Positions 10,930 to 60,311 of a DNA stretch of 64,000 nucleotides are shown here, piece by piece. The notes below the pieces were generated by a model. That model did not search any database, had not been told where the DNA came from, and saw only the letters and a program-made list of their open reading frames with translations. The translations under genes were made by a program, and so were the position numbers. Origin of the DNA: an uncultured Methanosarcinales archaeon (GTDB lineage Archaea > Nanobdellota > Nanobdellia > Woesearchaeales > JAGVZT01); assembly GCA_964444505.1 (NCBI GenBank), contig CAYUHF010000004.1, positions 28,583 to 92,582 of the forward strand. The letters run 5' to 3'. Within the stretch, counting starts at the first letter, position 1. Every line of letters begins with the position of its first letter.

Positions 10930-10941
10930 TACTATAGCCTA

Positions 10942-41859: not shown

Positions 41860-41898
41860 GCAATACTTTTATAAATTAAGATTGACACTCTTCCTTTC

Positions 41899-43193: not shown

Positions 43194-43984
43194 AATTCCT
43201 CCAGTGCTTTTTCAAGCTGTTGTTGTGTTGGTGCCTTGCCGTGCCACTCTGCCTTGTCTTCCATAAATGAGACTCCTTTTCCCTTAACTGTATTTGCAAT
43301 TATTACAACTGGTTTTTCTGGTTTGTATTCAAATGCCTCTATGATTTCTTCAATATCATGGCCATTGATTTCAATAACATGCCAGCCAAAAGACTCCCAT
43401 TTTTCTTTTAGCGGGCAGACACACATCACATCATGTGTTGGTCCGCACAGCTGGACTTTATTTCTGTCAATTATTGCGCATAGGTTTTCCAGTTTGTAGT
43501 GGGACGCACACATTGCAGCTTCCCACACCTGTCCTTCCTGAAGCTCGCCATCTCCAATCATGCAGAATATACGGTTGTCTTTTTTGTCCAGTGCAAGTGC
43601 CATTCCAACTGCAATACTCAACCCCTGACCAAGTGAGCCTGTGCTGGCTTCTATTCCTGGAAGATCTTTTTTTGACGGGTGTCCCTGGAGTCTTGAATTT
43701 ATCTGTCTTAAATTGTCAAGTTCCTGGACTGGAAAATAACCTGATCTTGCCAGAGCTGCATATAACACAGGACATGCATGACCCTTTGATAAAACAAACC
43801 TGTCCCTGTCTTCCCATTCTGGGTTCTCTGGCTTGTGGTTCATAACTCTGAAATACAATACTGCCATGATATCTGCAGCACTCAGGCTGCCGCCAGGGTG
43901 ACCACTCTTTGCCAGGGTGATCATCTTTAAAGAATCTATTCTTAACTGCCTTGCTATGCTATAAAGCTCCTGCGTATCTTTCAT
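43190..43984 (-). CDS. Transketolase, N-terminal section (TPP-binding)
   Basis: GHPGGSLS and GDGELQEG motifs. Confidence 0.85.
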   Translation of the reverse strand: MKDTQELYSIARQLRIDSLKMITLAKSGHPGGSLSAADIMAVLYFRVMNHKPENPEWEDRDRFVLSKGHACPVLYAALARSGYFPVQELDNLRQINSRLQGHPSKKDLPGIEASTGSLGQGLSIAVGMALALDKKDNRIFCMIGDGELQEGQVWEAAMCASHYKLENLCAIIDRNKVQLCGPTHDVMCVCPLKEKWESFGWHVIEINGHDIEEIIEAFEYKPEKPVVIIANTVKGKGVSFMEDKAEWHGKAPTQQQLEKALEEL

Positions 43985-46117: not shown

Positions 46118-46138
46118 GTCAACAATTCCTGAATTTAC

Positions 46139-46834
46139 TTATTTAAATATTTTGAATTGCTCTGGAGTAGAAATAAGATCAAAAAGCTGGATCGCTTTTT
46201 TAAAATCTCTGTACCTGAACTGTGGCCAGGGTTTTCCTGAAAAATAAATCAGTGAGTCAGCACTGTCCCACAGCAGAAATCCATTTGTTTTTTTTGGACC
46301 GTTGATTATTATTAGCTCAGGTGCCATATATGACATGTAGATATCTTCTTTTATCATTTCCTTGTCAATTGCATCAGGATCCAGCTTTCCTGCCTGGATT
46401 CTTCTTGCGAGAAGTCTGCATGCATCAACAATCTCCTGCTGTCCGTCATATTTGATACATAGATTGAGGAAGTATTTGTCAAAGTCTTTTGTCTCATCAA
46501 TTAATCTCTTGCATGCATCAACAATTCTTGTCGGGAGATTGTACCATTTTCCAACAACTGAAACCTTGAACTGGTTTTCAACAATGTCTTTGCTCTCTCT
46601 AAGCTCATTTAACAGAATGTGAAGCATCTCCATTGTTTTGGCAACATCTTTTGGGGTTTTGGCATCAAGAAGATACAATGTCATTACAGGTATTTCCAGT
46701 TTTATCTGGCCTCTTATCAGTTCATGGACTATGTCATTTCTTTCCTCAAAGAGTTCCTGGGAGGTCTTTCTTCTTTTCTCAGCCCAGGAAGCTGCATCTT
46801 TTTCAAGTGAGACTGCAATGTGGTTTAGTGTCAT
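46139..46834 (-). CDS. cis-Prenyltransferase (UppS) family paralog with substituted catalytic residues, probably non-catalytic
   Basis: Aligns to UppS throughout (HIAVSLEKDAASWAEKRRK against HVAIIMDGNGRWAKK; NGFLLWDSADSLIYF against SNFLLWQIAYAELYF). The catalytic D26, N28 and R30 equivalents are substituted and the C-terminal RxG motif is absent. Confidence 0.5.
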   Translation of the reverse strand: MTLNHIAVSLEKDAASWAEKRRKTSQELFEERNDIVHELIRGQIKLEIPVMTLYLLDAKTPKDVAKTMEMLHILLNELRESKDIVENQFKVSVVGKWYNLPTRIVDACKRLIDETKDFDKYFLNLCIKYDGQQEIVDACRLLARRIQAGKLDPDAIDKEMIKEDIYMSYMAPELIIINGPKKTNGFLLWDSADSLIYFSGKPWPQFRYRDFKKAIQLFDLISTPEQFKIFK

Positions 46835-46888
46835 TCAAGAGTAATTTAAAAACAAGATTTATAAAGATTATCATTTTCTGCATCAAAT

Positions 46889-47746
46889 ATGCTTGAACAA
46901 TTGGCTTATGCAGTTTCTTTTCTGTCATTAGGTGTTGCATCTTACTGTGACCTTAGGACAAGAGAGGTTCCTGACTGGATAAGTTATGGCACAATTTTTT
47001 TTGGTTTTGGAACAAGGATTCTTTTCAGTCTTTATGCACATTCATGGATGCCTCTTGTTTCCGGACTGCTTGGTTTTCTTGCTTTTCTTGTTATTGGTGT
47101 AGTGATGTATTACACTGGCCAGTGGGGTGGAGGGGACAGCAAGATTGTGATGGGTGTTGGAGCACTTATTGGTCTTAGGCCGTATCTTCATATACCTGAA
47201 TTATTGGTCTTCTGGATGTTTTCGATTTTTGTTGGGGCTTTTTACGGCATGGGTTACAGTATTTATCTTGCTGCAGCAAACAAGAAAAAGTTTTTGTCTG
47301 AGTTTCGGGAAAAAAGGAAAAAACACACAAAAAAGATTATTGCTGCGGTTGTGTTGTCTTTGATTTTTTTTGCAGCATCATTCAGGTTTTCTGATCCTGT
47401 TATGCAGACCACTATGCTGATGTTTCCTTTGGCAACTCTGCTTCTGATTTACATGTGGGTTTTTGTCAAATCAGTTGAGAACTCTGCAATGATCAAATCA
47501 GTTCCTGTTGAAAAATTAACAGAGGGTGACTGGATTGTCGAGGATATTGTTGTTGATGGTGAGTTTATATGGGGCCCTAAGAAACTTGGTATTGAGAAAA
47601 GCAAGATTGAAAAACTCAAAAAACTAAAAGAGAAAGGAAAAATTGAGAGAGTCAAGATTAAAGAAGGGATACCATTTGTTCCGACTTTTTTTGTCTCAAT
47701 AATTCTTACTTATATTTTTGGTTCTATTAACTTTGTGCTTTGGTAG
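46889..47746 (+). CDS. Archaeal type IV prepilin/preflagellin peptidase (A24 family, PibD/FlaK-like)
   Basis: CDLRTREVPD (first catalytic Asp) and GGGDSK (second catalytic Asp), with multiple transmembrane helices. Confidence 0.7.
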   Translation: MLEQLAYAVSFLSLGVASYCDLRTREVPDWISYGTIFFGFGTRILFSLYAHSWMPLVSGLLGFLAFLVIGVVMYYTGQWGGGDSKIVMGVGALIGLRPYLHIPELLVFWMFSIFVGAFYGMGYSIYLAAANKKKFLSEFREKRKKHTKKIIAAVVLSLIFFAASFRFSDPVMQTTMLMFPLATLLLIYMWVFVKSVENSAMIKSVPVEKLTEGDWIVEDIVVDGEFIWGPKKLGIEKSKIEKLKKLKEKGKIERVKIKEGIPFVPTFFVSIILTYIFGSINFVLW

Positions 47747-47822
47747 TTATGCTTTTAATAATTTGAGAAACAGTGCTAGTAATTTCATGTTTAAGAAATA
47801 CTTTTATGTTTTTTATAGGAAT

Positions 47823-47907
47823 CCTTCCATGGCCAGGCAGAGGTTCGGTGTTTTGAGAACTGTAGCAGGGCAATCGTAAAATAAGAGCTTGACCGTCTTT
47901 GCCAGGG
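47823..47907 (+). ncRNA. Structured RNA element, family copy 3 (CCAUGGCCAGGCAGAGG…GACCGUCUUUGCCAGGG). Further hairpins extend to about 47968.
   Basis: Same terminal-helix arrangement as copies 0-2. Downstream stem-loops GUUCAAG-ggaaa-CUUGAAC and GUAAAUUC-guuu-UGAAUUUAC follow, then GGUGGGAUUC, which also follows copy 0. Confidence 0.35.
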
Positions 47908-47994
47908 TGTGTTCAAGGGAAACTTGAACGCCAGTAAATTCGTTTTGAATTTACGTTGGTGGGATTCCTACTAACCTAAGATAGAGAATTATTT

Positions 47995-48771
47995 ATGGTT
48001 AAAAGTTTAGAAAGATATTTAAAGCTTTATAAGAAAGAAATTTGCATGCACAAAGTGTTAAACCTTCTTGACAGGATCAAAAAGTACTTTGCATTTTCGC
48101 CTAAGGAAATCAAGAGCATGGTTATTGCCATTCTTGTGCTTGGGCTGGTTGTTGGTTTTAATGACGGAAGGGATAAATTTATTGCTCCTTTGTGGCTTAT
48201 GAATCTTTTTAACAGTATTGTTGTGGTTGCACTTGCTGTTCTTGTAAGAGAGAGTGCGAGAAGAATATCTGGTCTTAAATTTGCACACAAGGTGGAGATG
48301 AAGCTCTGGCTTGTTGGCCTTGGAATTGCGCTTATTGCTTCGCTTATCAGCAATGGAAAGCTGTGGTTTCTTGCATATGGAGGCATGGTTGTCAGTCTTA
48401 TGCCAAAGCAGAGGATCGGGAGTTTCAGATATGGTATAAGTTATCATGACATGGCTGGCATGGCTTATGCAGCTGTCTTTGCAAACCTGGCTTTAGCAGG
48501 AATTTTTAGAATGCTTAGTTTTCTTCCAAGTCCACTAATTGACCTTTCAATAAAGGTTAATGTTCTTTTTGCAATTTTGAATATGATTCCTATTCCACCG
48601 CTTGACGGGAGTGTTATCTTTTTTGGCTCAAGAGGGGGGTATATTTTTTCACTTGCACTAACTGCTGCTTATTCAGTGCTGATACTTTATACAGGGATTG
48701 TTGTATCTCTTCTGGGTTCCCTGGCGTTTGCAGCTCTGGCAATTGTATTATTTATCATTTATGTAGAATGA
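47995..48771 (+). CDS. Site-2-protease (M50)-like polytopic membrane protein; no HExxH motif is evident
   Basis: NMIPIPPLDGS matches the S2P LDG motif. No clear HExxH was found in the N-terminal helices. Confidence 0.4.
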   Translation: MVKSLERYLKLYKKEICMHKVLNLLDRIKKYFAFSPKEIKSMVIAILVLGLVVGFNDGRDKFIAPLWLMNLFNSIVVVALAVLVRESARRISGLKFAHKVEMKLWLVGLGIALIASLISNGKLWFLAYGGMVVSLMPKQRIGSFRYGISYHDMAGMAYAAVFANLALAGIFRMLSFLPSPLIDLSIKVNVLFAILNMIPIPPLDGSVIFFGSRGGYIFSLALTAAYSVLILYTGIVVSLLGSLAFAALAIVLFIIYVE

Positions 48772-49064
48772 ACATCACAAAGAACTGGGTTGAGTACATG
48801 TTTGGGATACTTCTAGTTTGTGGTCTTTTGATGGCTTATTTTATTTCAAGTGCTTTTTTGAGTTTTGTTATTGTTTTGATTTGCGGTATGATTGCAGGAA
48901 GGATTTTTAGGTCTCAGAGAAGGTTTCCTGTTTTTGTGATTATTAGTGGTTTTATTCTTGGATATATTATGGGTAGCCAGTTTCACAAAGGTCTAACACT
49001 TGTGTTTTTTGTTCTGGGGGTAGTTGGTTATAATTTTTTGAATAAAAGTTTTCTTGAAGAGTGA
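48768..49064 (+). CDS. Small membrane protein, hypothetical
   Basis: Three hydrophobic helices. Confidence 0.35.
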   Translation: MNITKNWVEYMFGILLVCGLLMAYFISSAFLSFVIVLICGMIAGRIFRSQRRFPVFVIISGFILGYIMGSQFHKGLTLVFFVLGVVGYNFLNKSFLEE

Positions 49065-49110
49065 AGTTTTTCGTAAGTTTTATTAATATTTACGTTTTCT
49101 AGTAATAAAG

Positions 49111-49236
49111 ATGCCTAAAAAATGCATTATCTGTGAGGATGAAGCTGAGTATGGTATAAGGGGTACCAGCGACTATTACTGCAAGAAATGCGCTAAAGAG
49201 AACTTTGCTGATCTTGGACTTCTGGAAAAATTATAG
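49111..49236 (+). CDS. Small (41 aa) zinc-ribbon protein
   Basis: Hand-translated ORF: MPKKCIICEDEAEYGIRGTSDYYCKKCAKENFADLGLLEKL, with CxxC…CxxC. Confidence 0.35.
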   Translation: MPKKCIICEDEAEYGIRGTSDYYCKKCAKENFADLGLLEKL

Positions 49237-50088
49237 GTTTGCCGCACCAAACAATGCTGCGTTTCTAAGTTTTGATTTTCTTATAGTTGCCTTCATCATT
49301 GACCTTTTTTCAATCTCATCAATCATTGAGGAGAAGAAAAAAGACCAGGAGTTTGAAATTTTTCCTCCCAGAAGAATTATGTCAGGATCAAGCATGTAGA
49401 TTATGTTTGTGATTCCTATGCCCAATAGTTTGCCGTATTCATGAAATGTGTCTTGTGCTGCTTTGTTGTTCTGCACTGCAAGCTGGTAGACTTTTTTTGG
49501 ACTGTGTGCTTCTAATCCGTGTTTTCTTGCAATTGTCATAAGTCCTCTTGCACTTACATGCTCTTCAAGACAGCCCTGGTTGCCGCACTTGCTTTTTGGG
49601 CCTTTATAGTCTATTGTGTGGTGGCCAAACTCGCACGCATTGCCTTTTCCGTGATAGATTTTTTTGTTTATTACAAGTCCTCCCCCGACACCTGTGCCCA
49701 ATGTTAGTCCTGCTATTGTGTTTTTATTTTGTCCATGGCCGTACAGTGCTTCTCCAAGAACAAAACAACTGGCATCATTATCTACTTTTACAGGAAGTTT
49801 GAATTTTTTTTCAAGAATTCCTTTGAGTGGTGTGTTTTTGAATGGCAGGTTTGGTGTTCGGTGGATTATACCGTTTTTGCAGTCCAAAGGTCCTGGACAA
49901 CCCACTCCTATTGATTGGGCTTTTGATGTAACAACATAATCTATTGTTGAGATTATTCTTTCTACTACTTCATCACATCCTTGTTCTGGTTTTGTCTTGG
50001 TGACTTTGCTGTCAATTATCTTGTCAGCAATAATTAGTGCTGCTTCTATTTTGCTTCCGCCAATATCAACTCCAACTGTGTAAGGCAT
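49231..50088 (-). CDS. ROK-family glucokinase
   Basis: VGVDIGGSKIE and the Cys-rich ROK signature (CGNQGCLE). Confidence 0.75.
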   Translation of the reverse strand: MPYTVGVDIGGSKIEAALIIADKIIDSKVTKTKPEQGCDEVVERIISTIDYVVTSKAQSIGVGCPGPLDCKNGIIHRTPNLPFKNTPLKGILEKKFKLPVKVDNDASCFVLGEALYGHGQNKNTIAGLTLGTGVGGGLVINKKIYHGKGNACEFGHHTIDYKGPKSKCGNQGCLEEHVSARGLMTIARKHGLEAHSPKKVYQLAVQNNKAAQDTFHEYGKLLGIGITNIIYMLDPDIILLGGKISNSWSFFFSSMIDEIEKRSMMKATIRKSKLRNAALFGAANL

Positions 50089-50129
50089 GATTTATGTTTT
50101 TGTTTGCTTGGTATATATAATTTGCGGAG

Positions 50130-50783
50130 TCATATTTCTGTGAGTTTTTTTGGGATTTTGTTCCAGTCATCCATAAAACATTTTAAACCTGTGTCTGACA
50201 GAGGATGGCAAAACATTTTTTCAAGTACTTTGAATGGTATTGTTGCAATGTCTGCTCCTATCAGTGCTGCCTGTTTTACATGTGCAGGATGCCTTATAGA
50301 TGCTGCAAGTACTTTTGAGCTGAACCCATAGTTTTCTTTTATCTGAACCATTTCTGCAATGAGCTCTATTCCGTCCTGTCCTGCATCATCAACTCTTCCG
50401 ATGAATGGACTTATGTAGTATGCTCCTGCTTTTGCTGCTAAAAGGGCCTGGTTTGCAGAGAATACAAGTGTGACATTGCACTTTACATCTGGTATGCTCC
50501 TGACTGCCTTGATTCCTTCTACAGTCATGGGGATTTTGACAACTACTTTTTTGTCTATTTCTGATAGTATTTTTGCTTCTCTTATCATTCCCTGTGCATT
50601 GTCTGAGACTGCTTCTGCTGAAACTGATTTGATTTCAGGGATTTTGCATATTTCACTTATTACTTGTTTGAAGTTTTTGTTTACTTTTGAAATTAAGCTT
50701 GGGTTAGTTGTAACTCCTGTTATTCCCCAGCTTGCTGCTTTTGCTATTTCAGATATTTCTGCTGTATCAACAAATAGTTCCAT
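50130..50783 (-). CDS. Transaldolase / fructose-6-phosphate aldolase (short type 3B)
   Basis: [13 protein letters not shown]…GVTTNPSL; 217 aa. Confidence 0.8.
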
Positions 50784-50900
50784 TTGAGATCACCTGTTTT
50801 TGAAAAAGAAATCTGGTGTATTTAAGGATTGCTGAAAACCGAAAGGTTTTTATATGATAGTACTATTTTATATACTAAATATTGTTATATTAGTACTAAT

Positions 50901-51050
50901 ATGGTGAAAATTGTTGATAACAACGGGCAGTACAAGGTAACTCTACCTAAGACTCTTGTAATAGATAAGGGATGGGTAGGAGGTACTGTGATCAGGTTTG
51001 TTGAGGACTTGGAAGGGAGGGTTTTCTTGAAGGTGGTCAAGAATGAATAG
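50901..51050 (+). CDS. AbrB/MazE/SpoVT-type swapped-hairpin DNA-binding protein. It lies immediately upstream of surface-protein gene 1 and overlaps it.
   Basis: MVKIVDNNGQYKVTLPKTLVIDKGWVGGTVIRFVEDLEGRVFLKVV. This is the internal Met of track ORF 50829..51050. Confidence 0.45.
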   Translation: MVKIVDNNGQYKVTLPKTLVIDKGWVGGTVIRFVEDLEGRVFLKVVKNE

Positions 51051-54000
51051 GAAGACTCTTGTTTTGCTGTTTTTATTGTGTCTGCCTTTAGTTTTTGGTC
51101 TGAACTTCAGGGTAAAGGATGACTCCAGCACTTTCTTTATGGTAAATGGCAGTTCGGGTTTTGTTGGCGTGGGTCTGATTAATCCTATTGCTCTTTTTCA
51201 TGTCAATGGCAATGCGTATGTTGATGGTGATCTGAATGTTACTGGGACTATTTTTGGAGGAAGTCCTGTCAAGGTTGGTGGTGGGTTGAATATTACTTCA
51301 GGGGATTTGTATTTCCCTGACGGGACTTCCCAGAGTACTGCTGCTGCAGGCAGCAGCACAGAAGACGTGCAGGATGCTGCCTGGGATGTCACAACTGGTA
51401 CTCAGACTCATATCACTGTTACTTACCAGGATGACAATAATGAAGTTGATTTTGTGGTGAGTGATGACTGGTATGACTCTCCATCTGACGTCACCGGTGG
51501 GTTTGGGTGCAGTGAGCCTGACGAGTATCTTGCTGGTGATGGGAACTGTTATTCTGAGTATGATGCTGGTGATGACTTAGTTGATGATATCAATGAATGG
51601 GATTCGCAGTGTACTGACTGTGTTGGAAATGATGATTTGAATCCGAACAGTGTTGATCTTACTAGTGATGCTCTTAGCTCAGAGTATGCTGGGACCGGGC
51701 TTACAGGGGGTGGTAGCTCGGCTCTCAGTGTCAATACAGGAAATGGTTTGGATACAAGCGGTGATAGCGTGATTGCTGATGCAGGCTCTGGAGTGATTGT
51801 CAACTCCACTGGTATTAACACCAATATTAGCTATCTGAATGCCAGGTGTGCTGATATCACTGGTTCTTCTGACCTGTGTGATGGTGAAGATGCTGGTGTG
51901 GGTAGCTGTGATGACTGTTCCGGTACTTTTGTGGATGAAGGACAGAGTAACTCCATAACTTCTGGGATGGTTGACTTTAATTATGCTGGGTCTGCTTCTG
52001 AGGGTGGTCCCGCTTCATCTGGTGATTCTGCTACTGGGTTCTTCAGCTCAGGGTCAATTTCTACTACCCATACTGATGCCAAGTGTACTGACTCCGGTTG
52101 TGCTGATGATATTGCTTCATGCTCTGATGTTAATTCATGCACTATTGATGCCGAAAGTATGGAAGGAACTGATTTTGGAACTTTAACTAATGGCTACTAT
52201 TGTGTGTATGATTCTACCAGTACTGAAGTTGATTGTAATGTCCAGTATACTACTGCAACTGATACCGACTGTGCTTCTGATTCTGTATTGATGGGTGATG
52301 GTACTTGCGATACTAAGAGCAGCTTCGGTGATGGAACTGGAACTGATGACCAGACCTTGGCTGAGGTGCTGTCTTCTGGTTCTACAAGCACTACTAACCA
52401 GAACATCATTATTTCTGATGGAAGTATTTGTGCTGATAACGGTGGAGGAACCTGTGCAGGTTCCACCGATGGCTACATCTATGCTGATGTGTTCTATGAT
52501 AATGCTGGGTTTGTGGTTGACGGAGATATCACTGCTGTCAGCTCTGGTGAGGGTACTAAAGGTGGCACTTCCGATGGAGCCGCAACTATTGAGTTTGACT
52601 GCTCTGAGGTCGCAAGCACTCATCTTGCTTGCTCTGGTGAGGATATTTATGTCTCGACTGACTTTGAAGAAGAAGCTCATTGCACTGAGCATGACGGCAA
52701 CTATCTGTCATGTGATGGAGAGGAGTTAGATGTTGATGCATCTTCAGTGTGCTCTGCATGCAGCTATGACAACTATGGTGACTGGAACATATGTGATGAT
52801 GATGGTGACTGTTATAATGTTGTTGGGGCTAATGATGTAAGGTTTACGAGCTCTTCTGGGTACATCACCACCAATCTTATCAATGGTGATGACGGGGATG
52901 AGAATATCAACCTTGGATTAGGCTCAATAGGTGCTTGCTCTAATATCTGTACTGATGACGACGATCCTGAAGCAGGTGATGTTGCCTGGACTGATCTAAC
53001 TGATGATGGCACGTTTACTGATACAAAATTCTGCACATTTGACTCAGGAAACAGCAGGATTAACTGTGACTCTGATGCTGGTGGTGGATTATGGACGAAT
53101 TCTTCTCATGATGCGACTTATAATGATGGAAATGTCATTACTCAAAACAACATTGAAGCTCTTGGTTACCTTTTTTCACCAAAGATAATATCAAACAATA
53201 TATCTTTCAATACAATTGAACAGTTAGATGCAGAGGTTGCTTCAGGTTGGACCAACGTATATTCTCAAACATATTCTTGGCAATCCTTCACTCCATCTGT
53301 ATCTGGTTTATTAAAAAAAATAAGCTTACATATGGAAACTGCACCGAGTGACAATGTAACTGTACAAGTTCTCACAGGACAAGGTGGCGGGGGAACTGAA
53401 TTGACAACAGGTTTTGTTGATAGCCCTTCAGACGGTTGGAATACAATAGAACTCGAAAAACCAGTAATGGTTGAAAAAGACACATTATACACAATTTACT
53501 GGACAACTGGAGGTGATACATTAAAATATTACATCAATACAAACAACCCTTATTCTGGAGGAAGAGAAAGATGGGGCTCATCAAATGATTTGTACTTCCG
53601 TACATACATCATTCCTGCTGACAGCAACATATTCCATATCTCTGAAGATGGCAAGATAATAATATCTGGAGAATCATCTCTTCAAGGAGATACAAACATT
53701 CAAGGAGATACAAACATAAGTGGCACACTTTATGGAGGTAATGGAGAAAAGACATTTGGAGGACTAAATGTGAGCGGTAATGTTTTCCAGGAATTAAGAG
53801 ACCCAGTCAATGTGGGTGGAACAAGTGCTGCGGATTATGGCCAAGATGTTTTTGTTTCGGGAGATTACGCCTATGTTACAAGCTATTCAACAGGGGATGA
53901 CCTTGAAATTTTTGATGTCTCTGACCCCACTAATCCAACTAAAATTGGTGGAGCAGGAACACCTAGTACAGCAAATGAAGTTTTTGTTTCAGGAAAGTAT

Positions 54001-55215
54001 GCATATGTTGTAAGCACCAGCAGTGGTGATGAACTTTCTGTTTTTGATGTCTCTGACCCTTCTAATCCTTATCTGGCTGGTTCTGCCAATCTTGCAACAA
54101 GCGGGCGCGATGTCTATGTATCTGGGAATTATGCTTATGTAGTTAGCTCTTCAACAGGGGATGACCTTGAAATTTTTGATGTCTCTGATCCTACTAATCC
54201 CTCAAAGGTTGGAGGTGCTGAAGCTGCAACATCTGCGCTGAGCGTTTATGTCTCTGGTAATTATGCCTACGTTACAAGCTATTCGACAGGGGATGACCTT
54301 GAAATTTTTAATGTATCTGACCCTTCCAATCCAACTAAAGTTGGTGGAGTGGGTACTGCAGACAGTGCGAGAGATATAGTTGTTTCAGGAAAGTATGCTT
54401 ACGTAACGAGTGATTCGACTGGAGATGATCTTGAAATCTTCAATATCTCTGACCCTTCCAATCCAACTAAAGTTGGTGGAGTGGGTGCATCAGCAAACGC
54501 AAATGCTCTTGCAATATCAGGGGATTATGCATATGTTGGGTCAGATACAGCCGGGGATGAACTAGAGATTTTTGATATTTCTGATCCTACCAGTCCATTT
54601 AAGGTTGGAGGTGCAGCAGCAACATCCACTGTTTTTGGAATGTCAGTGTCAGGAAGATACATTTATTTGGCAGTTTTTTCAGGAGATGAACTATCAATCT
54701 ATGAAATACCCGGTATCACTACACCTGTATCAGAAATAGGAAATCTAAAAGCCGACAATGCATTTATTTCAAACAGACTTACAGTAGATAGTGATATCTA
54801 TGCAAAAAATGGCATCAGTGCACAGAATGCACAGTTCACAAATGACCTTGGTGTCGGGGGAGATATTTATGCTGCTGGTGACATCACTGCCGGTGGCTCC
54901 TGTTGTGCTGACTATGTGTTTGAGGATAACTATTCTCTTATGAGTCTTGAGGAGCTTGAGAAATTTGTGAATGAGAACAAGCATCTTCCTGGTATTTCAT
55001 GTGATGATTCTGTTAGTCTGAGCAGGCAGGAAAAGCTTGTTGAGAAGATTGAGGAATTGACTCTTTATACTTTTGAGCAGGAAAAGAAGATAAAAACACT
55101 AAAACAAGAAAAGGATAATGATGTCAAAGAATTAAGAGAACAAAATAAAGCTCTTAAAGAACTTGTTTGTCTTGACCACCCAGATGCAGAAATATGCAGA
55201 GGTGGTTCTGCATGA
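51043..55215 (+). CDS. Large (1390 aa) secreted/cell-surface protein. It has a signal peptide, a tail-fibre-like N-module, a Cys/Asp-rich region, about ten LVIVD-type beta-propeller repeats, and a C-terminal coiled-coil module shared with the downstream paralog.
   Basis: Signal sequence LVLLFLLCLPLVFG. N-module GSPVKVGGGLNITSGDLYF. Repeats of the form YAYV.S..TGDDLEIFDVSDPSNPTKVGG. C-terminus GDITAGGSCCADYVFEDNYSLMSLEELEKFVNENKHLPGI…. Confidence 0.8.
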   Translation: MNRKTLVLLFLLCLPLVFGLNFRVKDDSSTFFMVNGSSGFVGVGLINPIALFHVNGNAYVDGDLNVTGTIFGGSPVKVGGGLNITSGDLYFPDGTSQSTAAAGSSTEDVQDAAWDVTTGTQTHITVTYQDDNNEVDFVVSDDWYDSPSDVTGGFGCSEPDEYLAGDGNCYSEYDAGDDLVDDINEWDSQCTDCVGNDDLNPNSVDLTSDALSSEYAGTGLTGGGSSALSVNTGNGLDTSGDSVIADAGSGVIVNSTGINTNISYLNARCADITGSSDLCDGEDAGVGSCDDCSGTFVDEGQSNSITSGMVDFNYAGSASEGGPASSGDSATGFFSSGSISTTHTDAKCTDSGCADDIASCSDVNSCTIDAESMEGTDFGTLTNGYYCVYDSTSTEVDCNVQYTTATDTDCASDSVLMGDGTCDTKSSFGDGTGTDDQTLAEVLSSGSTSTTNQNIIISDGSICADNGGGTCAGSTDGYIYADVFYDNAGFVVDGDITAVSSGEGTKGGTSDGAATIEFDCSEVASTHLACSGEDIYVSTDFEEEAHCTEHDGNYLSCDGEELDVDASSVCSACSYDNYGDWNICDDDGDCYNVVGANDVRFTSSSGYITTNLINGDDGDENINLGLGSIGACSNICTDDDDPEAGDVAWTDLTDDGTFTDTKFCTFDSGNSRINCDSDAGGGLWTNSSHDATYNDGNVITQNNIEALGYLFSPKIISNNISFNTIEQLDAEVASGWTNVYSQTYSWQSFTPSVSGLLKKISLHMETAPSDNVTVQVLTGQGGGGTELTTGFVDSPSDGWNTIELEKPVMVEKDTLYTIYWTTGGDTLKYYINTNNPYSGGRERWGSSNDLYFRTYIIPADSNIFHISEDGKIIISGESSLQGDTNIQGDTNISGTLYGGNGEKTFGGLNVSGNVFQELRDPVNVGGTSAADYGQDVFVSGDYAYVTSYSTGDDLEIFDVSDPTNPTKIGGAGTPSTANEVFVSGKYAYVVSTSSGDELSVFDVSDPSNPYLAGSANLATSGRDVYVSGNYAYVVSSSTGDDLEIFDVSDPTNPSKVGGAEAATSALSVYVSGNYAYVTSYSTGDDLEIFNVSDPSNPTKVGGVGTADSARDIVVSGKYAYVTSDSTGDDLEIFNISDPSNPTKVGGVGASANANALAISGDYAYVGSDTAGDELEIFDISDPTSPFKVGGAAATSTVFGMSVSGRYIYLAVFSGDELSIYEIPGITTPVSEIGNLKADNAFISNRLTVDSDIYAKNGISAQNAQFTNDLGVGGDIYAAGDITAGGSCCADYVFEDNYSLMSLEELEKFVNENKHLPGISCDDSVSLSRQEKLVEKIEELTLYTFEQEKKIKTLKQEKDNDVKELREQNKALKELVCLDHPDAEICRGGSA

Positions 55216-55793
55216 GGAAAAGATACTTTATATTTCTCTTAATGCTTTTGCCCGGAGTTCTTGCCCTGAACTTCAGGGTGAAGGATGACTCCAGCACTTT
55301 TTTTATGGTAAATGGCAGTTCTGGGTATGTTGGTGTGGGTCTGATTAATCCTATTGCTCTTTTTCATGTCAATGGCAATGCTTATGTTGATGGTGACCTT
55401 AATGTTACTGGTACTATCTTTGGAGGGAGTCCTGTCAAGGTTGGTGGTGGGTTGAATATTACTTCAGGGGATTTGTATTTTTCTGATGGGAGTTCTATGA
55501 GTAGTGCTTCTGCTGGTGGAGGATCCAGCATATGGACCAACTCATCAGGAAATGCAACGTTTACATCAGGCAATGTTGGAATTGGAACAACCACACCTGA
55601 ATACAGACTCGAATTAGTCGGAGATTTCAAAATATCTGATCCTTCAGGAAATGCTGAGATCAAAACAGCAGATACAGCTTATTTATCAAAAGAATGGTCC
55701 ACAAGTTCTGAATTCAACGAGACAGGTACAACATTTACTTCAGGAATCTTAGCTAGTGAAACACACAATGATCTGAGGTTGAAGACAACATGA
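55194..55793 (+). CDS. Short paralog consisting of the signal peptide and N-module only. It may be a cassette or fragment.
   Basis: The N-terminus is about 94% nucleotide-identical to 51043-51360 and is followed by WTNSSGNATFTSGNVGIGTTTP. Confidence 0.5.
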   Translation: MQRWFCMRKRYFIFLLMLLPGVLALNFRVKDDSSTFFMVNGSSGYVGVGLINPIALFHVNGNAYVDGDLNVTGTIFGGSPVKVGGGLNITSGDLYFSDGSSMSSASAGGGSSIWTNSSGNATFTSGNVGIGTTTPEYRLELVGDFKISDPSGNAEIKTADTAYLSKEWSTSSEFNETGTTFTSGILASETHNDLRLKTT

Positions 55794-58700
55794 AAAAAAA
55801 TTATCTACTATTCTTGTTTGTAATTAGTCTGGCTTCAACAATCTGTTTTTCAGAAACTTTGTACGATAAAACAGCATCCGCAGCTGCTGAAAATAAAGGT
55901 TTGATGCCTCCTGAAAACACATTACAAAAGTACACTTCAAGAGGACAGTGGTTGCTGGAAGTGCCGTCAGAAAGAACAAGGATCAGCAGCACATATAAAA
56001 TAATGAATTCAGACAACACCTTTTCAGAAGAATATATTTCCATATTGCATCAGAAGTCACTTCACTACAAAAAAGATGGCAAATGGGAGAAGATTGATCC
56101 TACACTTGAAAAAATTCCTGGAGGGTGGAAGACAAAAGACAATGACTTGAGTGTGAAATTCACAAATTATAACACAGATTGGCCTTTTTCCATCTCACGT
56201 AAAGGAGAATATACTCTCAAACAAAAAGAATTTGCAATTGGTTACTATGATGATAAATTCAACATCCTTGAAACTTTCAAATCAAGCAATGCTCTTTTAG
56301 AAAGTGATAGTAATTCAATAATCTATCCTGAGGTTTTCCCTGGAATAAACATTAAATATACATCTGATCACGACTACGTAAAAAAAGATGTAATAATCAG
56401 ACAGAGTGCAAAAGAAAAATTACTTGATGAAATCTCAAATTTTGATCAGGAGGGCTGGTTAACACTTGGTACCCGAATTGATTTTTCCGAAAACAATGGA
56501 TGGTATATTGATATGCAGGAAGGAGAAGAAAAAAGGGGGCCTATTCATATTAGAAAAGGTGAATCAGCAAATGACCAGCTTTCCAGAGGCATAATCTATG
56601 ATGAAAGTGGAAATAGAATTATTGCAAAATATAAACTAATAGATGACAATAGATATGGTAAACTTCTTTTAACAATGATACCTCTAGAGTGGGTTAAAAA
56701 ATCAAATGGAGATATTACAATTGATCCCACCTACTATGCAACAAGTGCTGACGGCTACTTCCATTTTGTCAATGAGACATACTCAAATGTCAGAGATGGT
56801 TCTACCGGTGACAGAGGTTGCTATGATACCTTTGATTATGTATGTGCAGGTCAACACGAAAATACAGGGAGCTCAGGCTACACTATCTACAGAGGTTATT
56901 ATGAATTTAACACAACTGGAATTCCAGATGATGCGACAATAACTGAAGCAAGAATATTTCTCAATGAAGAATTAGTAAGTAATGACTATGATTTCAATGT
57001 GAGTATTTACCATTACAACTGGAGTTCTCCTCTTTGCAACAGCCAGTATTCTAACTGGGTTGGAGCTTACGGTGCTTCAGCATCTTTTGAAGGAATCTTA
57101 GTTGATACGGCAGATGGATGGACAGGAGATACCTGGAAAAACATTTCACTGAACACAAGCAGAATTAATCCTGGTGATTACACAAGGTATAGCATTGTCT
57201 CTGAAGAAGACGTAAACAATAATGTACCCCCAGACAACACAGAAGCATGGGTCTGTCCCAACAGTGCTGATACTGCAGGTACGACAGAAGATCCATATCT
57301 AAGCATAACATACACAACCCCCACTTATGTAACAGGATGGCACAATTGGACTTCAGAAACAATTGACGGCGGGAGCAGTCAATACAGACCAAACATCTTA
57401 AAAGCATCATGGACTTTGGACGGATCTGACAATATTACTCCTAAGTTTCAGGTTTTAGGATCTGACACAGGAAGTTTCAGCGGAGAAGAAAGTGTTTATC
57501 CTGGTTCAGGTGAGTATTATCAGGACGGTACTTCATATGACATAAATAACAATGTTGCTCTAGATATTTCATCTGATATAAATGCCTCGTACAGATATTG
57601 GAAGGTAAGAGTTTCTATTACAACTGGCACGGACACAGGAGATACTCCCAGAGTTGAGGAGATTGTCCTTGAGGATTCAAAATCACTAACTCTGCAATCA
57701 TCAGGTCAAAGAGTGGGAATCGGAACAACATCACCTCTGTCAATCTTTCATGTGAATGGCAATTCGCTGTTTGTAGGGGATGTAAATATTACAGGGACAT
57801 TATATGGAGGAAGTCCTGTCAAGGTTGGCGGGGGATTGAATATGACTTCTGGGGGTTTGTACTTTTCTGATGGGAGTTCTATGAATAGTGCTCCCGCTGG
57901 TGGATTATGGACGAATTCTTCTCATGATGCTACTTATACTGATGGAAATGTTGGAATCGGAACTAGTTCACCGGATGACCAGTTGGATGTTGATCCTTCT
58001 ACTCCTGATGGGATATCAGAAATCTCTAAAGGAGGTTCAATTCCCAATATGGGCTATCCATGGGGCTTACATGTAGTTGGAGACTATGCATATGTTGTCT
58101 CACCCACCTATCAAAGCCTGTCAATTATTGACATATCTGACCCTGAAAATCCCTTAGGATTGTCAGAACTGACATCTTCAGATTTAGGGATTGATTTTCG
58201 TGCTCATGATATTTTTGTGTCTAGTGGTTATGCATATTGCAGCTTACAAGATTCTGGCCTTGCGGTAATCGATATATCAAACCCATTAACTCCATATCTT
58301 GTAGGTTTGGTAAACTCTAGTGATCCAGATATTTCTTCATTTGACAGCACCTATACATTTTATGTTTCAGGAAAATATGCCTACCTTGGAGATACAACTT
58401 ATGACAATGGTTTTCATGGTGCATTTGGTGTAGTTGATATCTCTGATCCCAGTAATCCTGACGCTATAGCTATGGTAAATAGTTCCGACTCCAATATAAC
58501 CCATATGAAGCTTCCTCAAAAAATCAAGGTAAGTGGAGGCTACGCTTATGTTGTTTCAGGTGGTTATGGTGGAGGGAGCCTCGCGATAATAAATATTACA
58601 GATCCAGCACAGCCAGATGCAGTTTCTGAGATTATAAACGGAACTGATCCAGACTGCCCGAACTGGGGTTCACTGTATAATTTAGATATAAGGGGGAACC

Positions 58701-59500
58701 TGGCATATGTGGTTGACAGATATAACGTTGGGGGTCTGTCAGTCGTAGACATCTCAGACAAATCTAATCCTGATTGTATAGGGTATGTTAACACATCTGA
58801 TCCAGATTTTTCTCTAACATACTGCGAAGCTGGCTATCCTGTTGGAGATTTTTATTACATGGTCGGGAGGAATGGAGTTGCTTTAATCGACATATCTGAT
58901 CCAATGAATCCTGATGTTGTTGACCAGCTTCTTGGGTCTAATGATCCCAATGTTTCTCTAAATCAACCACAGGATATTCAAGTTGTGGGTAACTATGCCT
59001 ATACTGTCAACTATCAAGGTCATTCCTTCTCAGTTATAAAACTCGATGGTGCAAATATTCCGACCGCAAACATAGGATCAATAAATTCTGATACCCTCAA
59101 CGTTATGGAGAATCTTCACGTTTCGGGGGATATTTACTCATATGGAATCCATTCCAAAGATGGTCTTTTTACAGGCGACCTAGCATCCAGTGGAGATATT
59201 TATGCTGTCGGCGACATCACTGCCGGTGGCTCGTGCTGTGCTGACTATGTGTTTGAGGATAACTATTCTCTTATGAGCCTTGAAGAGCTTGAGAAATTTG
59301 TTAATGAGAATAAGCATCTTCCGGGCATTTCATGTGATGATTCTGTTAGTCTGAGCAGGCAGGAGAAGTTGGTTGAGAAGATTGAGGAATTAACTCTTTA
59401 TACTTTTGAGCAGGAAAGAAAGATAAAAGAACAAAAACAGGAAATAGAAGATATGAAAAACAGATTAGAAAAACTCGAAACAACTATTCAGGACCCTTAG
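55790..59500 (+). CDS. Large (1236 aa) secreted/cell-surface protein, paralog of 51043..55215. It has its own signal peptide, a distinct N-region, an internal copy of the tail-fibre-like module, LVIVD repeats, and a near-identical C-terminal module.
   Basis: MKKNYLLFLFVISLASTICFS signal sequence; internal RVGIGTTSPLSIFHVNGN…GSPVKVGGGLNMTSGGLYF; LVIVD-like repeats (YAYVVS…LSIIDISDPENP); a C-terminal ~90 aa block about 93% nucleotide-identical to 54870-55215. Confidence 0.8.
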   Translation: MKKNYLLFLFVISLASTICFSETLYDKTASAAAENKGLMPPENTLQKYTSRGQWLLEVPSERTRISSTYKIMNSDNTFSEEYISILHQKSLHYKKDGKWEKIDPTLEKIPGGWKTKDNDLSVKFTNYNTDWPFSISRKGEYTLKQKEFAIGYYDDKFNILETFKSSNALLESDSNSIIYPEVFPGINIKYTSDHDYVKKDVIIRQSAKEKLLDEISNFDQEGWLTLGTRIDFSENNGWYIDMQEGEEKRGPIHIRKGESANDQLSRGIIYDESGNRIIAKYKLIDDNRYGKLLLTMIPLEWVKKSNGDITIDPTYYATSADGYFHFVNETYSNVRDGSTGDRGCYDTFDYVCAGQHENTGSSGYTIYRGYYEFNTTGIPDDATITEARIFLNEELVSNDYDFNVSIYHYNWSSPLCNSQYSNWVGAYGASASFEGILVDTADGWTGDTWKNISLNTSRINPGDYTRYSIVSEEDVNNNVPPDNTEAWVCPNSADTAGTTEDPYLSITYTTPTYVTGWHNWTSETIDGGSSQYRPNILKASWTLDGSDNITPKFQVLGSDTGSFSGEESVYPGSGEYYQDGTSYDINNNVALDISSDINASYRYWKVRVSITTGTDTGDTPRVEEIVLEDSKSLTLQSSGQRVGIGTTSPLSIFHVNGNSLFVGDVNITGTLYGGSPVKVGGGLNMTSGGLYFSDGSSMNSAPAGGLWTNSSHDATYTDGNVGIGTSSPDDQLDVDPSTPDGISEISKGGSIPNMGYPWGLHVVGDYAYVVSPTYQSLSIIDISDPENPLGLSELTSSDLGIDFRAHDIFVSSGYAYCSLQDSGLAVIDISNPLTPYLVGLVNSSDPDISSFDSTYTFYVSGKYAYLGDTTYDNGFHGAFGVVDISDPSNPDAIAMVNSSDSNITHMKLPQKIKVSGGYAYVVSGGYGGGSLAIINITDPAQPDAVSEIINGTDPDCPNWGSLYNLDIRGNLAYVVDRYNVGGLSVVDISDKSNPDCIGYVNTSDPDFSLTYCEAGYPVGDFYYMVGRNGVALIDISDPMNPDVVDQLLGSNDPNVSLNQPQDIQVVGNYAYTVNYQGHSFSVIKLDGANIPTANIGSINSDTLNVMENLHVSGDIYSYGIHSKDGLFTGDLASSGDIYAVGDITAGGSCCADYVFEDNYSLMSLEELEKFVNENKHLPGISCDDSVSLSRQEKLVEKIEELTLYTFEQERKIKEQKQEIEDMKNRLEKLETTIQDP

Positions 59501-60311
59501 GCTGTGCTACGCCGGGAATGCCTGCTTCAACAACATCCGGCTCTAAGACTTCTTTGATGATCATTGTTGGAATTCCAACTTCTATCATTCTTGCCTCGAT
59601 TACACCATCTGGCTGACCTTTCATGTTTGCAAGTATGTCTTTTGCCTTTTCCATGTACTCTTCTTTCTTCTCTTCCATCTCTTCCTGCAGCTTTTTCTTT
59701 TCTTCTTCCAGCTGCTTTCTCTCTTCTGCTGTGATTTCTGTCTTTTCTTCTTTTATCTGCTTGTCAAACTTGCCTTCATTTATTGCCTTTGTTGCCTCTT
59801 TTCCGGCCATGCCCTCTACAAGAACTCCCATTGACCTGCATGTACCTACAACTTCTTTGACCTTTTGCTTGAGGTCTTTTCCAAGAAGGTCATCTTCTTT
59901 CATCTTGGCAACTTTGATGACCTGCTCAATAAGAATATCAGCAACTTTATACTCTAATGGATTTGATGAACCTTTCTGCATCTTAGCTTCTTTCATGATA
60001 AGCTGAGAAACAGGTGGTGTACCAACACTGATTGAAAATTCTTTAGAATCTGTATCTACAGAAACCTTAACAGGAACCTGCATTCCGGAAAAACTTGCAG
60101 TTTTAGTGTTTATCTCGTTTATTACCTGGCCAATATTAACCCCTAATGGACCTAAAGCTGGACCAAGTGGTGGTGCGGCTGTTGCCTTGCCACCTTCTAC
60201 AAGTGCTTCAACTGTTTCTGTAGCCATATAAATAAGGGATTGAGGATAATATTTAAATCTTACTCTTAATTTATTCACTTTAGAAATTTCATGGTGGATT
60301 CCCCTTGTCAC
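59484..60311 (-). CDS. rpl11: Ribosomal protein uL11 with a C-terminal K/E-rich extension of about 85 aa
   Basis: GGKATAAPPLGPALGPLGVNIGQVINEIN is the L11 N-domain. The extension reads KQIKEEKTEITAEERKQLEEEKKKLQEEMEEKKEEY… The likely true start is the internal Met (MATETVEAL). Confidence 0.7.
   Translation of the reverse strand: MTRGIHHEISKVNKLRVRFKYYPQSLIYMATETVEALVEGGKATAAPPLGPALGPLGVNIGQVINEINTKTASFSGMQVPVKVSVDTDSKEFSISVGTPPVSQLIMKEAKMQKGSSNPLEYKVADILIEQVIKVAKMKEDDLLGKDLKQKVKEVVGTCRSMGVLVEGMAGKEATKAINEGKFDKQIKEEKTEITAEERKQLEEEKKKLQEEMEEKKEEYMEKAKDILANMKGQPDGVIEARMIEVGIPTMIIKEVLEPDVVEAGIPGVAQPKGPE

Follow-up and report, generated by a model that had tools for sequence, protein, structure and literature searches.

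Related surface protein systems

C-terminal intramolecular chaperones are known from phages, examples being Peptidase_S74 of endosialidases and Peptidase_G2 of phi29-like appendages. LVIVD-repeat cell-surface proteins have been described in Methanosarcina and in other archaea and bacteria (Adindla et al. 2004, PMC2447325), and among cultivated DPANN archaea an operon of nanohaloarchaea encodes LamG proteins, a trimeric-autotransporter-like protein and an R-type pyocin knob protein, the knob domain being also a tail-fibre-related part (PMC10266531). In Apilactobacillus kunkeei, the available part of the description of Giant1-5 presents tandem large surface proteins that evolve by recombination and gene conversion (PMC12863079).

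The locus described here lies in a window of 64 kb, by which we mean the whole stretch of DNA analysed, and comprises three large or fibre-like protein genes (g1, g2 and g3) behind a small gene. As in the LVIVD surface proteins, g1 and g3 carry tandem repeats of ~42-44 aa within secreted, multi-domain proteins, with PF08309 scores well above the Pfam threshold, but here the propeller is set in a fibre-type scaffold, preceded by a GIGT module and followed by a helical C-module and coiled coil, and the genes make up a tandem mosaic (PMC2447325). The nanohaloarchaeal surface proteins, thought to act in host recognition, are likewise large, acidic (pI about 4) and Sec-secreted; they differ in phylum, in size (about 9 kaa, against 1.2-1.4 kaa here) and in domains, since the present proteins combine LVIVD, GIGT and C-module parts and lack LamG, Ig and VirB4-like domains, and young conversion tracts between paralogues are a feature of the present locus, unlike the nanohaloarchaeal operon (PMC10266531). 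With Giant1-5, as far as the available part of that account goes, the likeness is one of kind only: consecutive same-strand genes for large extracellular proteins with some common modules, in which the domains are unrelated and the host here is archaeal (PMC12863079).

Operon organization and the small upstream gene

The genes and the region preceding them are as follows.

50830..50900, + strand: AT-rich promoter-like region, read from the sequence
50901..51050, + strand: small AbrB/SpoVT-like gene, 49 aa (ORF)
51043..55215, + strand: g1, secreted modular protein, 1390 aa (ORF)
55212..55793, + strand: g2, 193 aa from its likely start (longest ORF 55194-55793, 199 aa)
55790..59500, + strand: g3, modular and secreted, with a signal peptide of its own, 1236 aa (ORF)

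Boxes of the TTTATATA type, 25-55 nt before the first ATG, probably represent the archaeal TATA/BRE. The stop of the small gene overlaps the ATG of g1 by 8 nt and g2 is joined to both neighbours by ATGA overlaps, so that the chain of four genes shows overlaps of 8, 4 and 4 nt with all reading frames intact, and by this layout the four appear to form one translationally coupled operon. The coordinates given for g1 and g3 by an earlier sequence-only reading, which had seen three same-strand genes, were retained; its g2 start at 55194 most likely has to be moved to 55212, because this start produces the ATGA overlap with the g1 stop and an NCBI protein 100% identical to g2 (P0115) is 193 aa long. 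The secreted proteins have pI values of 4.05-5.08 (4.05 for g1), and g1, g2 and g3 each contain one hydrophobic segment, at the N-terminus, with no further transmembrane segments and no recognisable membrane or cell-wall anchor.

An AbrB-like protein overlapping the start of g1 had also been proposed. The overlap is there; the 49-aa protein itself has no Pfam match, while 29 of its 33 homologous representatives in a library of 1.8 billion proteins match PF04014 (best E 2.3e-12), and a PDB profile search placed SpoVT (2ro5) and AbrB-family structures (2l66/5itj) at the top with E 0.025-0.06. It can thus be regarded as AbrB/SpoVT-like through family evidence only, a transitive assignment. Its size and sequence pattern agree with the swapped-hairpin DNA-binding proteins of the AbrB/SpoVT/MazE family (PF04014; Sso7c4, PDB 2l66), of which single- and tandem-domain versions exist, but unlike these systems it falls below every threshold, has no toxin partner and is coupled to a surface-protein gene. 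At two other loci (L085 and L086) a homologue of the small gene immediately precedes a large GIGT-fibre gene; in two more (L082 and L084) no fibre gene follows the AbrB-like homologue within the short sequence at hand.

Modules of the three proteins

The following features were recognised within g1, g2 and g3.

51100..51315, + strand: g1 N-module, aa 20-91 (LNFRVKDD...SGDLYF), core of the g1/g2 block
51316..53088, + strand: g1 acidic, Cys-rich insert, aa 92-682, by composition
53082..53135, + strand: g1 WTNSS junction motif, 96% identical to g3 57898-57951
53287..53517, + strand: DUF4082-like domain of g1, aa 749-825 (PF13313, E 4e-6)
53662..53790, + strand: degenerate second N-type module of g1, aa 874-916, by alignment (blastp of g1 880-986 against g2)
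53839..54714, + strand: g1 seven-bladed LVIVD beta-propeller (PF08309, E 2.8e-42, 6 stretches)
54859..55110, + strand: g1 C-terminal module, aa 1273-1356 (GDIYAAGDITAGGSCCADYVFEDNY...HLPGI...KIEELTLYTF...), common to g3
55111..55212, + strand: g1-specific coiled-coil end with the Cys pair CLDHPDAEIC
55266-55481, + strand: g2 N-module
55530-55622, + strand: g2 WTNSS-GIGT unit
55853-57685, + strand: g3 N-terminal region, 610 aa, with only a weak DUF7948 match
57686..57991, + strand: g3 internal N-type module and WTNSS-GIGT unit, aa 633-734, collinear with g2
58061..59050, + strand: g3 seven-bladed LVIVD propeller (PF08309, E 2e-33, 5 stretches)
59192..59443, + strand: g3 C-terminal module, aa 1135-1218, common to g1

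The LVIVD propellers, recognised earlier from their repeats, were borne out by the domain search, with seven blades in each protein, those of g1 being counted from the translation, where the Pfam match covers 6 stretches. The period in g1 is 44 aa (132 nt, visible as 132-nt direct repeats); the blades of g3 are longer and more diverged, and g3 has 37.7% amino acid identity to the C-terminal half of g1 over 618 aa. The PF13313 match in g1 scores 27.3 bits, just under the Pfam cut-off of 28.4.

The acidic region of g1 (30 Cys and D+E = 20% in aa 101-690) separates elements that adjoin in g2 and g3, is present in triplicate in an NCBI protein (P0001), and has at either end a motif (aa 101-150 and 638-682) in common with a protein of a tailed-virus contig (P0016 of L001; 57-62% identity over 45-51 aa). 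The degenerate N-type copy of g1 directly precedes the propeller, the same arrangement as in g3, whose internal module and WTNSS-GIGT unit have 74-77% nucleotide identity to g2 and g1. The 56-aa tail of g2 is unique, with no hidden homology in other frames, and the structure model of g2, with a pLDDT of 60, was too poor for use.

For the C-module, AlphaFold2 predicts a short helix and a long helix (pLDDT 80.5). Beyond it, the ending of g1 recurs in a protein of locus L056 (CLDHPEASIC) and in related form in P0001 and P0118. Most of the 97 homologues of the module are Bacteroidota proteins of 120-300 aa, some of them named 'tail fiber protein'. Placed terminally and with a coiled coil after it, the module resembles the chaperone domains of phage fibres and tailspikes, and relatives with GIGT repeats bear in its place S74 (P0137, P0014 and P0002) or a G2-IMC-like domain (P0125). 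Unlike phage chaperone domains it matches neither PF13884 nor PF11962, has no relative among solved structures, and is not preceded by a cleavage motif of the Ser-Asp-x-Arg-x-Lys type. Membership of Peptidase_S74 is not supported: Pfam gave no such match, and the profile similarity to S74 drops to 2.8% probability once the coiled coil is removed.

It is possible, if unlikely, that g1-g3 are secreted but take no part in cell attachment, being structural proteins associated with the envelope or S-layer, or binding or enzymatic propellers for substrates, the shared modules serving only in assembly. LVIVD and the related propellers matched below threshold (choice-of-anchor B, SBP56) have no defined ligand, and no adhesin-specific domain was found in g1-g3; on the other hand, modules of the fibre type and a distribution that is variable and lineage-specific recall proteins for recognising a host or partner rather than core envelope proteins, which argues weakly for attachment.

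Viral relatives and chromosomal setting

The likeness to tail fibres noted before holds in a looser sense. None of g1, g2 and g3 reaches a PHROG or Pfam tail-fibre model, and searches with the Pfam phage-fibre families and Peptidase_S74 gave no match, but their modules occur in IMG/VR proteins that do match PHROG tail-fibre families: a viral 1937-aa protein with the N-module and WTNSS-GIGT unit (E 4.3e-47) and a protein ending in the C-module (L092, E 9.9e-56). The C-module was found in 36 IMG/VR viral loci, where it forms the C-terminus of proteins 221-2086 aa long, tail-fibre-type proteins among them, and other viral C-module proteins adjoin tail-fibre or head genes. In 50,697 GenBank phage records, tblastn with the C-module (window and viral copies) and with g2 returned nothing, and the viral link therefore rests on uncultivated IMG/VR contigs.

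With all three shared module types present in viral contigs, g1-g3 might be receptor-binding proteins of an integrated-virus remnant or of a virus-derived particle, which we consider improbable. The flanks consist of housekeeping genes (transaldolase, ROK kinase, L11, Spt5, SecE and FtsZ), capsid, portal, terminase and integrase genes are absent in and beside the locus, the GC values of 0.38-0.42 in the 2-kb windows over 50001-60000 are covered by the range of the rest of the window (0.36-0.43), and the signal peptides are of the Sec type expected of cellular secreted proteins.

The host is a DPANN archaeon (Woesearchaeota) of the small symbiont type, in agreement with the archaeal origin proposed from the sequence alone. 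In the closest genomes found (L017 and L044, FtsZ 87-89% identical) the ROK kinase gene directly follows that of L11, without the operon, and none of 54 related loci encodes relatives of g1-g3; the operon is lineage-specific, at a variable chromosomal position.

Shared blocks and their exchange

Blocks of DNA shared between the paralogues had been reported as ~94% identical over ~105 codons for g1 and g2, including the signal peptide, and as extending to the C-termini for g1 and g3. Both blocks are present, with different dimensions. The g1/g2 block (51090-51350 and 55256-55516) has 90.4% identity over 261 nt (87 codons) and takes in no more than the final residues of the signal peptides, which are themselves unlike. 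The block of g1 and g3 (g3 copy 59192-59444) has 91.7% identity over 253 nt (84 codons) and is followed by unlike ends of 34 codons in g1 and 18 in g3. An N-type copy inside g3 at about residue 630, seen earlier, was recovered (g1 nt 154-308 against g3 nt 1957-2111, 76.8% identical). A further block of 54 nt, new to this analysis, is 96% identical between g1 53082-53135 and g3 57898-57951. Chance similarity is far exceeded (blastn E about 1e-102), and the blocks are sharply bounded: at each edge identity drops from 87-100% to 25-35% over no more than 30 nt.

At four-fold sites the difference is 0.26 in the g1/g2 block and 0.19 in the g1/g3 block, compared with 0.75 in the flanking propeller and stalk of g1 and g3; the internal N-type module and WTNSS-GIGT unit of g3 differ by 0.50-0.53 from g2 and g1. 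By this contrast between blocks and flanks, the blocks mark gene-conversion or module-exchange tracts younger than the remaining gene sequence, and they seem to have been under purifying selection since the exchange. Their mismatches are mostly synonymous (15 synonymous and 9 non-synonymous; 13 and 4). Exchange between genomes is supported by the apparently chimeric P0001, 85% identical to g1 over aa 1-638, with the g1-type N-module joined to the same downstream sequence throughout, and unrelated in its C-terminal half. The description of these genes as modular, recombined paralogues is thus upheld.

Since the source is evidently metagenome-assembled and assemblers can be led astray by repeats of 250-300 nt, the blocks could in principle be artefacts of assembly or binning, with chimeric joins at repeats. 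This is very improbable, because about 10% of positions are unlike between the copies, for the most part synonymously, and the frames and ATGA overlaps are all intact; the independent P0001 has the same N-module-to-downstream junction over 638 aa.

Programmed cassette variation, in which the shared modules would be sites of high-frequency recombination within a population, swapping heads or ends and so altering attachment specificity or evading recognition, had also been suggested; the sharp edges, the evidence of conversion, the chimeric P0001 and the variable chromosomal position would suit it. We nevertheless think it improbable that such a system operates here: each copy is a complete gene, translationally coupled and equipped with a signal peptide of its own, and no silent or promoterless cassettes occur in the 64-kb window, the four-fold-site differences of about 20-26% accumulated in the blocks mean that the last exchange was not recent, the scanned flanks contain no recombinase, invertase or reverse transcriptase, the mismatches show no adenine bias or other signature of a DGR, and a metagenome scan found no close variants. 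What the blocks record is most probably mosaic evolution over evolutionary time and not programmed switching.

Proposed role of the operon

On balance, and with modest confidence, we favour the reading of the locus as a lineage-specific Woesearchaeota operon of secreted, fibre-like surface proteins with mosaic modules and propeller heads. Its products would be three Sec-secreted, acidic proteins, presumably located at the cell surface and built from parts that also seem to serve in tail fibres of uncultivated viruses and in small secreted proteins of Bacteroidota: the GIGT-type N-module with its 'W-T-N-S-S...NVGIGT' repeat junction, the acidic Cys-rich insert of g1 and, in g1 and g3, the helical C-terminal module with the coiled coil after it. 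The LVIVD propeller of g1 and g3 would be the likely ligand-binding head, binding the surface of a partner, and g2 may be a minimal fibre stub bearing the N-module of g1. The N- and C-modules may act as oligomerisation or docking elements, the latter apparently occupying the position of the intramolecular-chaperone or trimerisation domain of phage fibres, and the AbrB-like protein may control the operon. The whole is plausibly a cell-attachment locus, of an ordinary kind.

Arrangement of the genes

The locus is made up of a small gene and three plus-strand ORFs, which lie where the sequence-only reading had placed them except for the start of g2:

50901-51050, small upstream ORF, AbrB/SpoVT-like, 49 aa
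51043-55215, plus strand, g1, 1390 aa
55194-55793, plus strand, longest ORF of g2, 199 aa
55790-59500, plus strand, g3, 1236 aa

The start of g2 is probably at 55212 and not at 55194, because initiation there produces an ATGA overlap with the stop codon of g1 and the same start is used in an identical NCBI protein (P0115). Adjacent genes overlap by 8 nt (AbrB-like/g1), 4 nt (g1/g2) and 4 nt (g2/g3), and the four genes therefore form one translationally coupled unit; TATA-like boxes are found in an AT-rich stretch 5' of the first ATG. That g2 might be what a frameshift has left of a longer gene was considered and rejected: the tail has no homology in other frames, and the gene overlaps both of its neighbours by ATGA.

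Architecture of the encoded proteins

All three proteins are acidic (pI 4.05-5.08), each with one N-terminal hydrophobic segment and no further membrane segment. Their parts, including a module common to g1 and g2 (N-module), a module near the C-termini of g1 and g3 (C-module) and a junction motif (WTNSS-GIGT unit), are as follows:

g1, N-terminal, before the N-module: signal peptide
g1, aa 20-91: N-module
g1, aa 92-682: acidic, Cys-rich insert (30 Cys within aa 101-690)
g1, after the insert: WTNSS junction
g1, after the WTNSS junction: DUF4082-like domain, slightly under threshold
g1, aa 874-916: degenerate second N-type module
g1, aa 933-1224: predicted seven-bladed LVIVD propeller, then a short stalk
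g1, aa 1273-1356: C-module
g1, end: coiled coil with CLDHPDAEIC
g2, whole protein: signal peptide, N-module, WTNSS-GIGT unit and a unique 56-aa tail
g3, N-terminal part: its own signal peptide and a 610-aa region without domain assignment
g3, aa 633-734: N-type module and WTNSS-GIGT unit
g3, remainder: predicted seven-bladed LVIVD propeller, stalk, C-module and short coiled coil

The internal segment of g3 (aa 633-734) is collinear with g2, and in g1 the acidic insert of 590 aa holds the same two elements apart. In their C-terminal halves g1 and g3 are paralogous and collinear (37.7% identity over 618 aa). The LVIVD repeats that had been recognized by eye were borne out by the PF08309 model, with scores of 142.2 bits for g1 and 113.9 bits for g3 against a gathering cut-off of 20.2, seven repeats being readable in each sequence; among NCBIfam models only a sub-threshold choice-of-anchor-B match was obtained. 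An AlphaFold2 model of g2 (pLDDT 60, pTM 0.29) was too poor for a fold search.

Shared DNA blocks and their age

Comparison of the genes by blastn gave four pairs of similar segments: g1 nt 48-308 with g2 nt 63-323 (90.4% over 261 nt), g1 nt 3817-4069 with g3 nt 3403-3655 (91.7% over 253 nt), g1 nt 154-308 with g3 nt 1957-2111 (76.8%) and a 54-nt stretch, g1 2040-2093 with g3 2109-2162 (96%). The same four pairs were found again by a repeat search, together with a 132-nt periodicity in the g1 propeller. The N and C blocks previously described are thus present, but at identities a few points lower than those first given, and their limits differ: the signal peptides, said to be covered by the N block, are dissimilar and lie outside it, and the C block, taken for the C-terminus itself, ends 34 codons (g1) and 18 codons (g3) ahead of the stop codons.

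At every block edge, 30 nt suffice for identity to fall from 87-100% to the random level, and the differences inside the blocks are chiefly synonymous (15/9 and 13/4). As a measure of age we used the proportion of four-fold sites, in codons for identical residues, at which the third bases differ:

Differences at four-fold sites between paralogous segments
N block, g1/g2: 0.26
C block, g1/g3: 0.19
Propeller and stalk, g1/g3: 0.75 (saturated)
Internal module of g3 against g1 or g2: 0.50-0.53
Blades of g1 against one another: 0.53

This contrast indicates that the blocks are much younger than the genes surrounding them. They are best read as products of gene conversion or module transfer, with purifying selection afterwards, and the exchange is not very recent. 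An assembly artefact is unlikely given that the copies are 10% diverged and their reading frames intact.

Cassette-based variation, suggested by the sequence-only reading, gained no support, since all the copies are complete, coupled genes and the 64 kb window has no silent partial donor cassettes; a tblastn search with the modules within the window found no further copy. Programmed switching shares one trait with what is observed, namely gene conversion between copies that leaves sharp-edged blocks far younger than their flanks, but a metagenome scan with the N-module alignment retrieved only relatives of 27-53% identity and no strain variants, and neither a recombinase nor a reverse transcriptase was present among the neighbours scanned (for reverse transcriptase, the genes at 40780-50783 and the neighbouring ones downstream, which are housekeeping genes), so that such switching is a conjecture. 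A diversity-generating retroelement (DGR) target was also rejected, the mismatches being spread over all bases with no adenine bias.

The C-terminal module

Homologues of the C-module (n = 97) are mostly secreted Bacteroidota proteins of 120-300 aa with GIGT motifs, named 'tail fiber protein', 'bZIP transcription factor' or 'hypothetical'. The consensus of the module, after which comes a coiled coil, is [W/C]xDYVFEDxYxLxSLxELExFIxENKHLPxIP...KIEELTLY. Searched as a profile against PDB sequences, the module gave no match; its AlphaFold2 model (pLDDT 80.5) consists of two helices, one short and one long, for which Foldseek found no match in the PDB and a fold search of BFVD returned one borderline match, an uncharacterised Megaviridae protein (E 6e-3).

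This end of the proteins had been likened to the intramolecular-chaperone domains of tail spikes, with Peptidase_S74 as the candidate family. The S74 model (PF13884) had no match up to E 10 in the C-terminal 171 aa of g1 and none in the whole of g1 or g3, and no SDxRxK-like motif could be read ahead of the module in either sequence. In hhalign comparisons with four S74 domains a probability of 62% was obtained with the coiled coil included and only 2.8% once it had been trimmed; the assignment of the C-module as an S74 domain was therefore rejected.

In viral data the module stands at the extreme C-terminus of proteins of 221-2086 aa in 36 IMG/VR loci. One such protein (L092) matches PHROG tail-fibre families (phrog_9942, E 9.9e-56), two others (L101 and L111) are encoded next to tail-fibre genes and a fourth (L093) has a major head gene nearby; the shortened loop of the g1 and g3 copies also occurs in some viral copies. 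The C-terminus of relatives carrying GIGT repeats is variously the C-module, S74 (P0137, E 7.9e-19) or a Peptidase_G2-IMC-like domain (P0125), the S74 model being matched by P0137, P0014 and P0002. The C-module thus takes the place of known fibre-assembly domains in these proteins, and it may be an alternative to the intramolecular chaperones known to end phage fibres. It is an unnamed and widespread module, ending tail-fibre-type proteins of uncultivated viruses as well as hundreds of small secreted proteins of Bacteroidota.

Relationship to viral tail fibres

The description of the proteins as tail-fibre-like proved right at the level of modules, which are homologous to those of tail-fibre-type proteins, but not at that of whole proteins, since g1-g3 match no tail-fibre model: PHROG searches returned only families of unknown function and Pfam searches matched no phage-fibre family. 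A viral protein of 1937 aa (L081), which matches PHROG tail-fibre families (phrog_18345, E 4.3e-47), has the N-module and its WTNSS-GIGT junction as its repeat unit, and the same unit is repeated in a protein of at least 4921 aa encoded on a metagenome contig. The latter (L060, Ga0214919_10001064) is a single frame of at least 4921 codons in which six or more g2-like modules are found and which extends past the end of the locus; an alternative genetic code, considered for this contig, is wrong given this single ORF. Both end motifs of the g1 insert are common to a tailed-virus protein, P0016 (57-62% identity), the contig of which also encodes portal, major head and tape-measure proteins. P0016 (1628 aa; L001, Ga0255054_10000225, 5420-10306) repeats the two acidic motifs that bound the insert.

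A tblastn search of 50,697 GenBank phage records with the C-module (the copy in the window and a viral one) and g2 found nothing, and the viral link is therefore drawn from uncultivated contigs. Viral scans with the acidic region of g1, and a first one with g2 alone, likewise gave nothing. These shared modules could be taken to mean that the locus is itself of viral origin, which is unlikely, however, as its flanks are housekeeping genes, it lies outside any module of virion structural genes and its proteins carry Sec signal peptides.

Genomic setting and relatives

When GTDB was scanned with the neighbouring L11 protein, the best relatives (52-71% identity) were nearly all Woesearchaeota/Nanoarchaeota MAGs and no genome exceeded about 70% L11 identity; the window therefore comes from a DPANN archaeon of a species outside the GTDB representatives searched. 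The gene order FKBP-FtsZ-SecE-Spt5-L11 is conserved. In L017 and L044, the genomes closest to it (FtsZ 87-89% identical), L11 is directly followed by the ROK kinase gene, located in the window as follows:

49231-50088, ROK kinase

From this adjacency it follows that about 9.4 kb, with a transaldolase gene, the small gene and g1-g3, are absent there, and relatives of g1-g3 are missing from all 54 related loci. GC content in 2-kb windows over 50001-60000 (0.38-0.42) is inside the range found elsewhere in the window (0.36-0.43).

Several other features of the window were recorded. The L11 gene (59484-60311, minus strand) is convergent with g3, their 3' ends sharing 17 nt (59484-59500), and its product is prolonged at the C-terminus by a Glu/Lys-rich stretch of about 85 aa, which is kept across the 54 Woesearchaeota/Nanoarchaeota genomes retrieved (query residues 1-228 matched). 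About 3 kb 5' of the locus lies a gene for an archaeal type IV prepilin/preflagellin peptidase (46889-47746, plus strand; Peptidase_A24, E 1.1e-13), also found near ROK in L017 and L044. A second giant secreted protein of 2416 aa (980-8230, minus strand), with an RCC1-like propeller (PF25390, E 1.7e-51) and Cys-rich stretches, is unrelated to g1-g3; upstream of its gene, overlapping it by 11 nt, a 163-aa helix-turn-helix protein is encoded (8220-8711, minus strand), which makes this the window's second pair of a small DNA-binding gene and a giant surface protein.

When g2, P0001 and P0115 were looked up by exact sequence, no recorded contig was obtained. The protein P0001, encoded on a different archaeal contig at NCBI, corresponds to g1 aa 1-638 at 85% identity; beyond aa 638 part of the insert occurs in two extra copies, and the C-terminal region is a different one, G2-IMC-like and lacking a propeller. 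A metagenome protein (L056) joins an N-type module and a collar-like region to a C-terminal region of the P0001 type and the 'CLDHPxAxIC' ending of g1. These combinations indicate that modules are shuffled between genomes as well. The L056 protein (Ga0315533_1000237, 8264-12295; 1343 aa) has a His-rich tail-collar-like region, an 'AEW...GIIS' domain also seen in P0001, an ending of the g1 type, 'CLDHPEASIC', and a C-terminal hydrophobic anchor. At another locus, L083 (ERZ26696514 ctg238233, 2-11245), a giant LVIVD and Peptidase_S74 gene is seemingly split into three overlapping ORFs; as a parallel 'large-small-large' case it was set aside, being probably one gene broken by frameshift errors in a contig of 1.81x coverage.

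The AbrB-like gene

The small upstream protein had been assigned to the AbrB/MazE fold. Its homologous family is indeed PF04014, but the window protein itself has no Pfam match up to E 10 and, as a single query, none in the PDB. An exhaustive search gave 33 representatives, in which a domain of about 45 aa occurs once or twice; 29 of the 33 match PF04014 (MazE/SpoVT-AbrB; best E 2.3e-12), and the profile has its best PDB matches, with marginal E values (0.025-0.06), in SpoVT and in archaeal proteins of the AbrB family. In L085 and L086 the homologue lies directly 5' of a large secreted GIGT-fibre gene, in one case with a 4-nt overlap, and two other contigs are too short or have no GIGT-fibre gene after the homologue. 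The pairing, seen in three of five contexts, is thus recurrent and not universal. On two contigs, stretches 3' of the homologues (L082 350-560 and L084 720-885) have similar translations in a frame with stop codons, which suggests a conserved non-coding element.

Implications for partner recognition

How DPANN archaea recognize and hold on to their partner cells is largely unknown (PMC11329633), and most candidate recognition proteins have been inferred on the basis of surface proteins that are large and lineage-specific (PMC10266531). Surface proteins with LVIVD repeats have been on record since 2004 (PMC2447325), and cultivated DPANN archaea have large acidic surface proteins and operons with tail-fibre-related domains, presumed to be host-interaction factors (PMC10266531), from which this locus differs in its other domain set and its clear mosaicism. 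A fuller scheme can be imagined, and we regard it as improbable as a whole: that partner recognition is built here from virus tail-fibre parts, with trimeric propeller-headed fibres, a third, as yet undescribed class of C-terminal assembly module beside S74 and G2, specificity altered through the swapping of heads and ends among paralogues and with viruses, and control by a dedicated AbrB-like regulator that accompanies genes of this type.

No general principle is changed by these results, and the lead they offer is incremental but usable. The locus constitutes a compact, testable recognition candidate in Woesearchaeota, composed of a stub protein and two fibre-like proteins with predicted propeller heads, and it brings with it a small putative regulator that recurs beside similar genes in other archaeal contigs; the chief gains are the unnamed C-terminal fibre module and this recurring AbrB-like partner gene.
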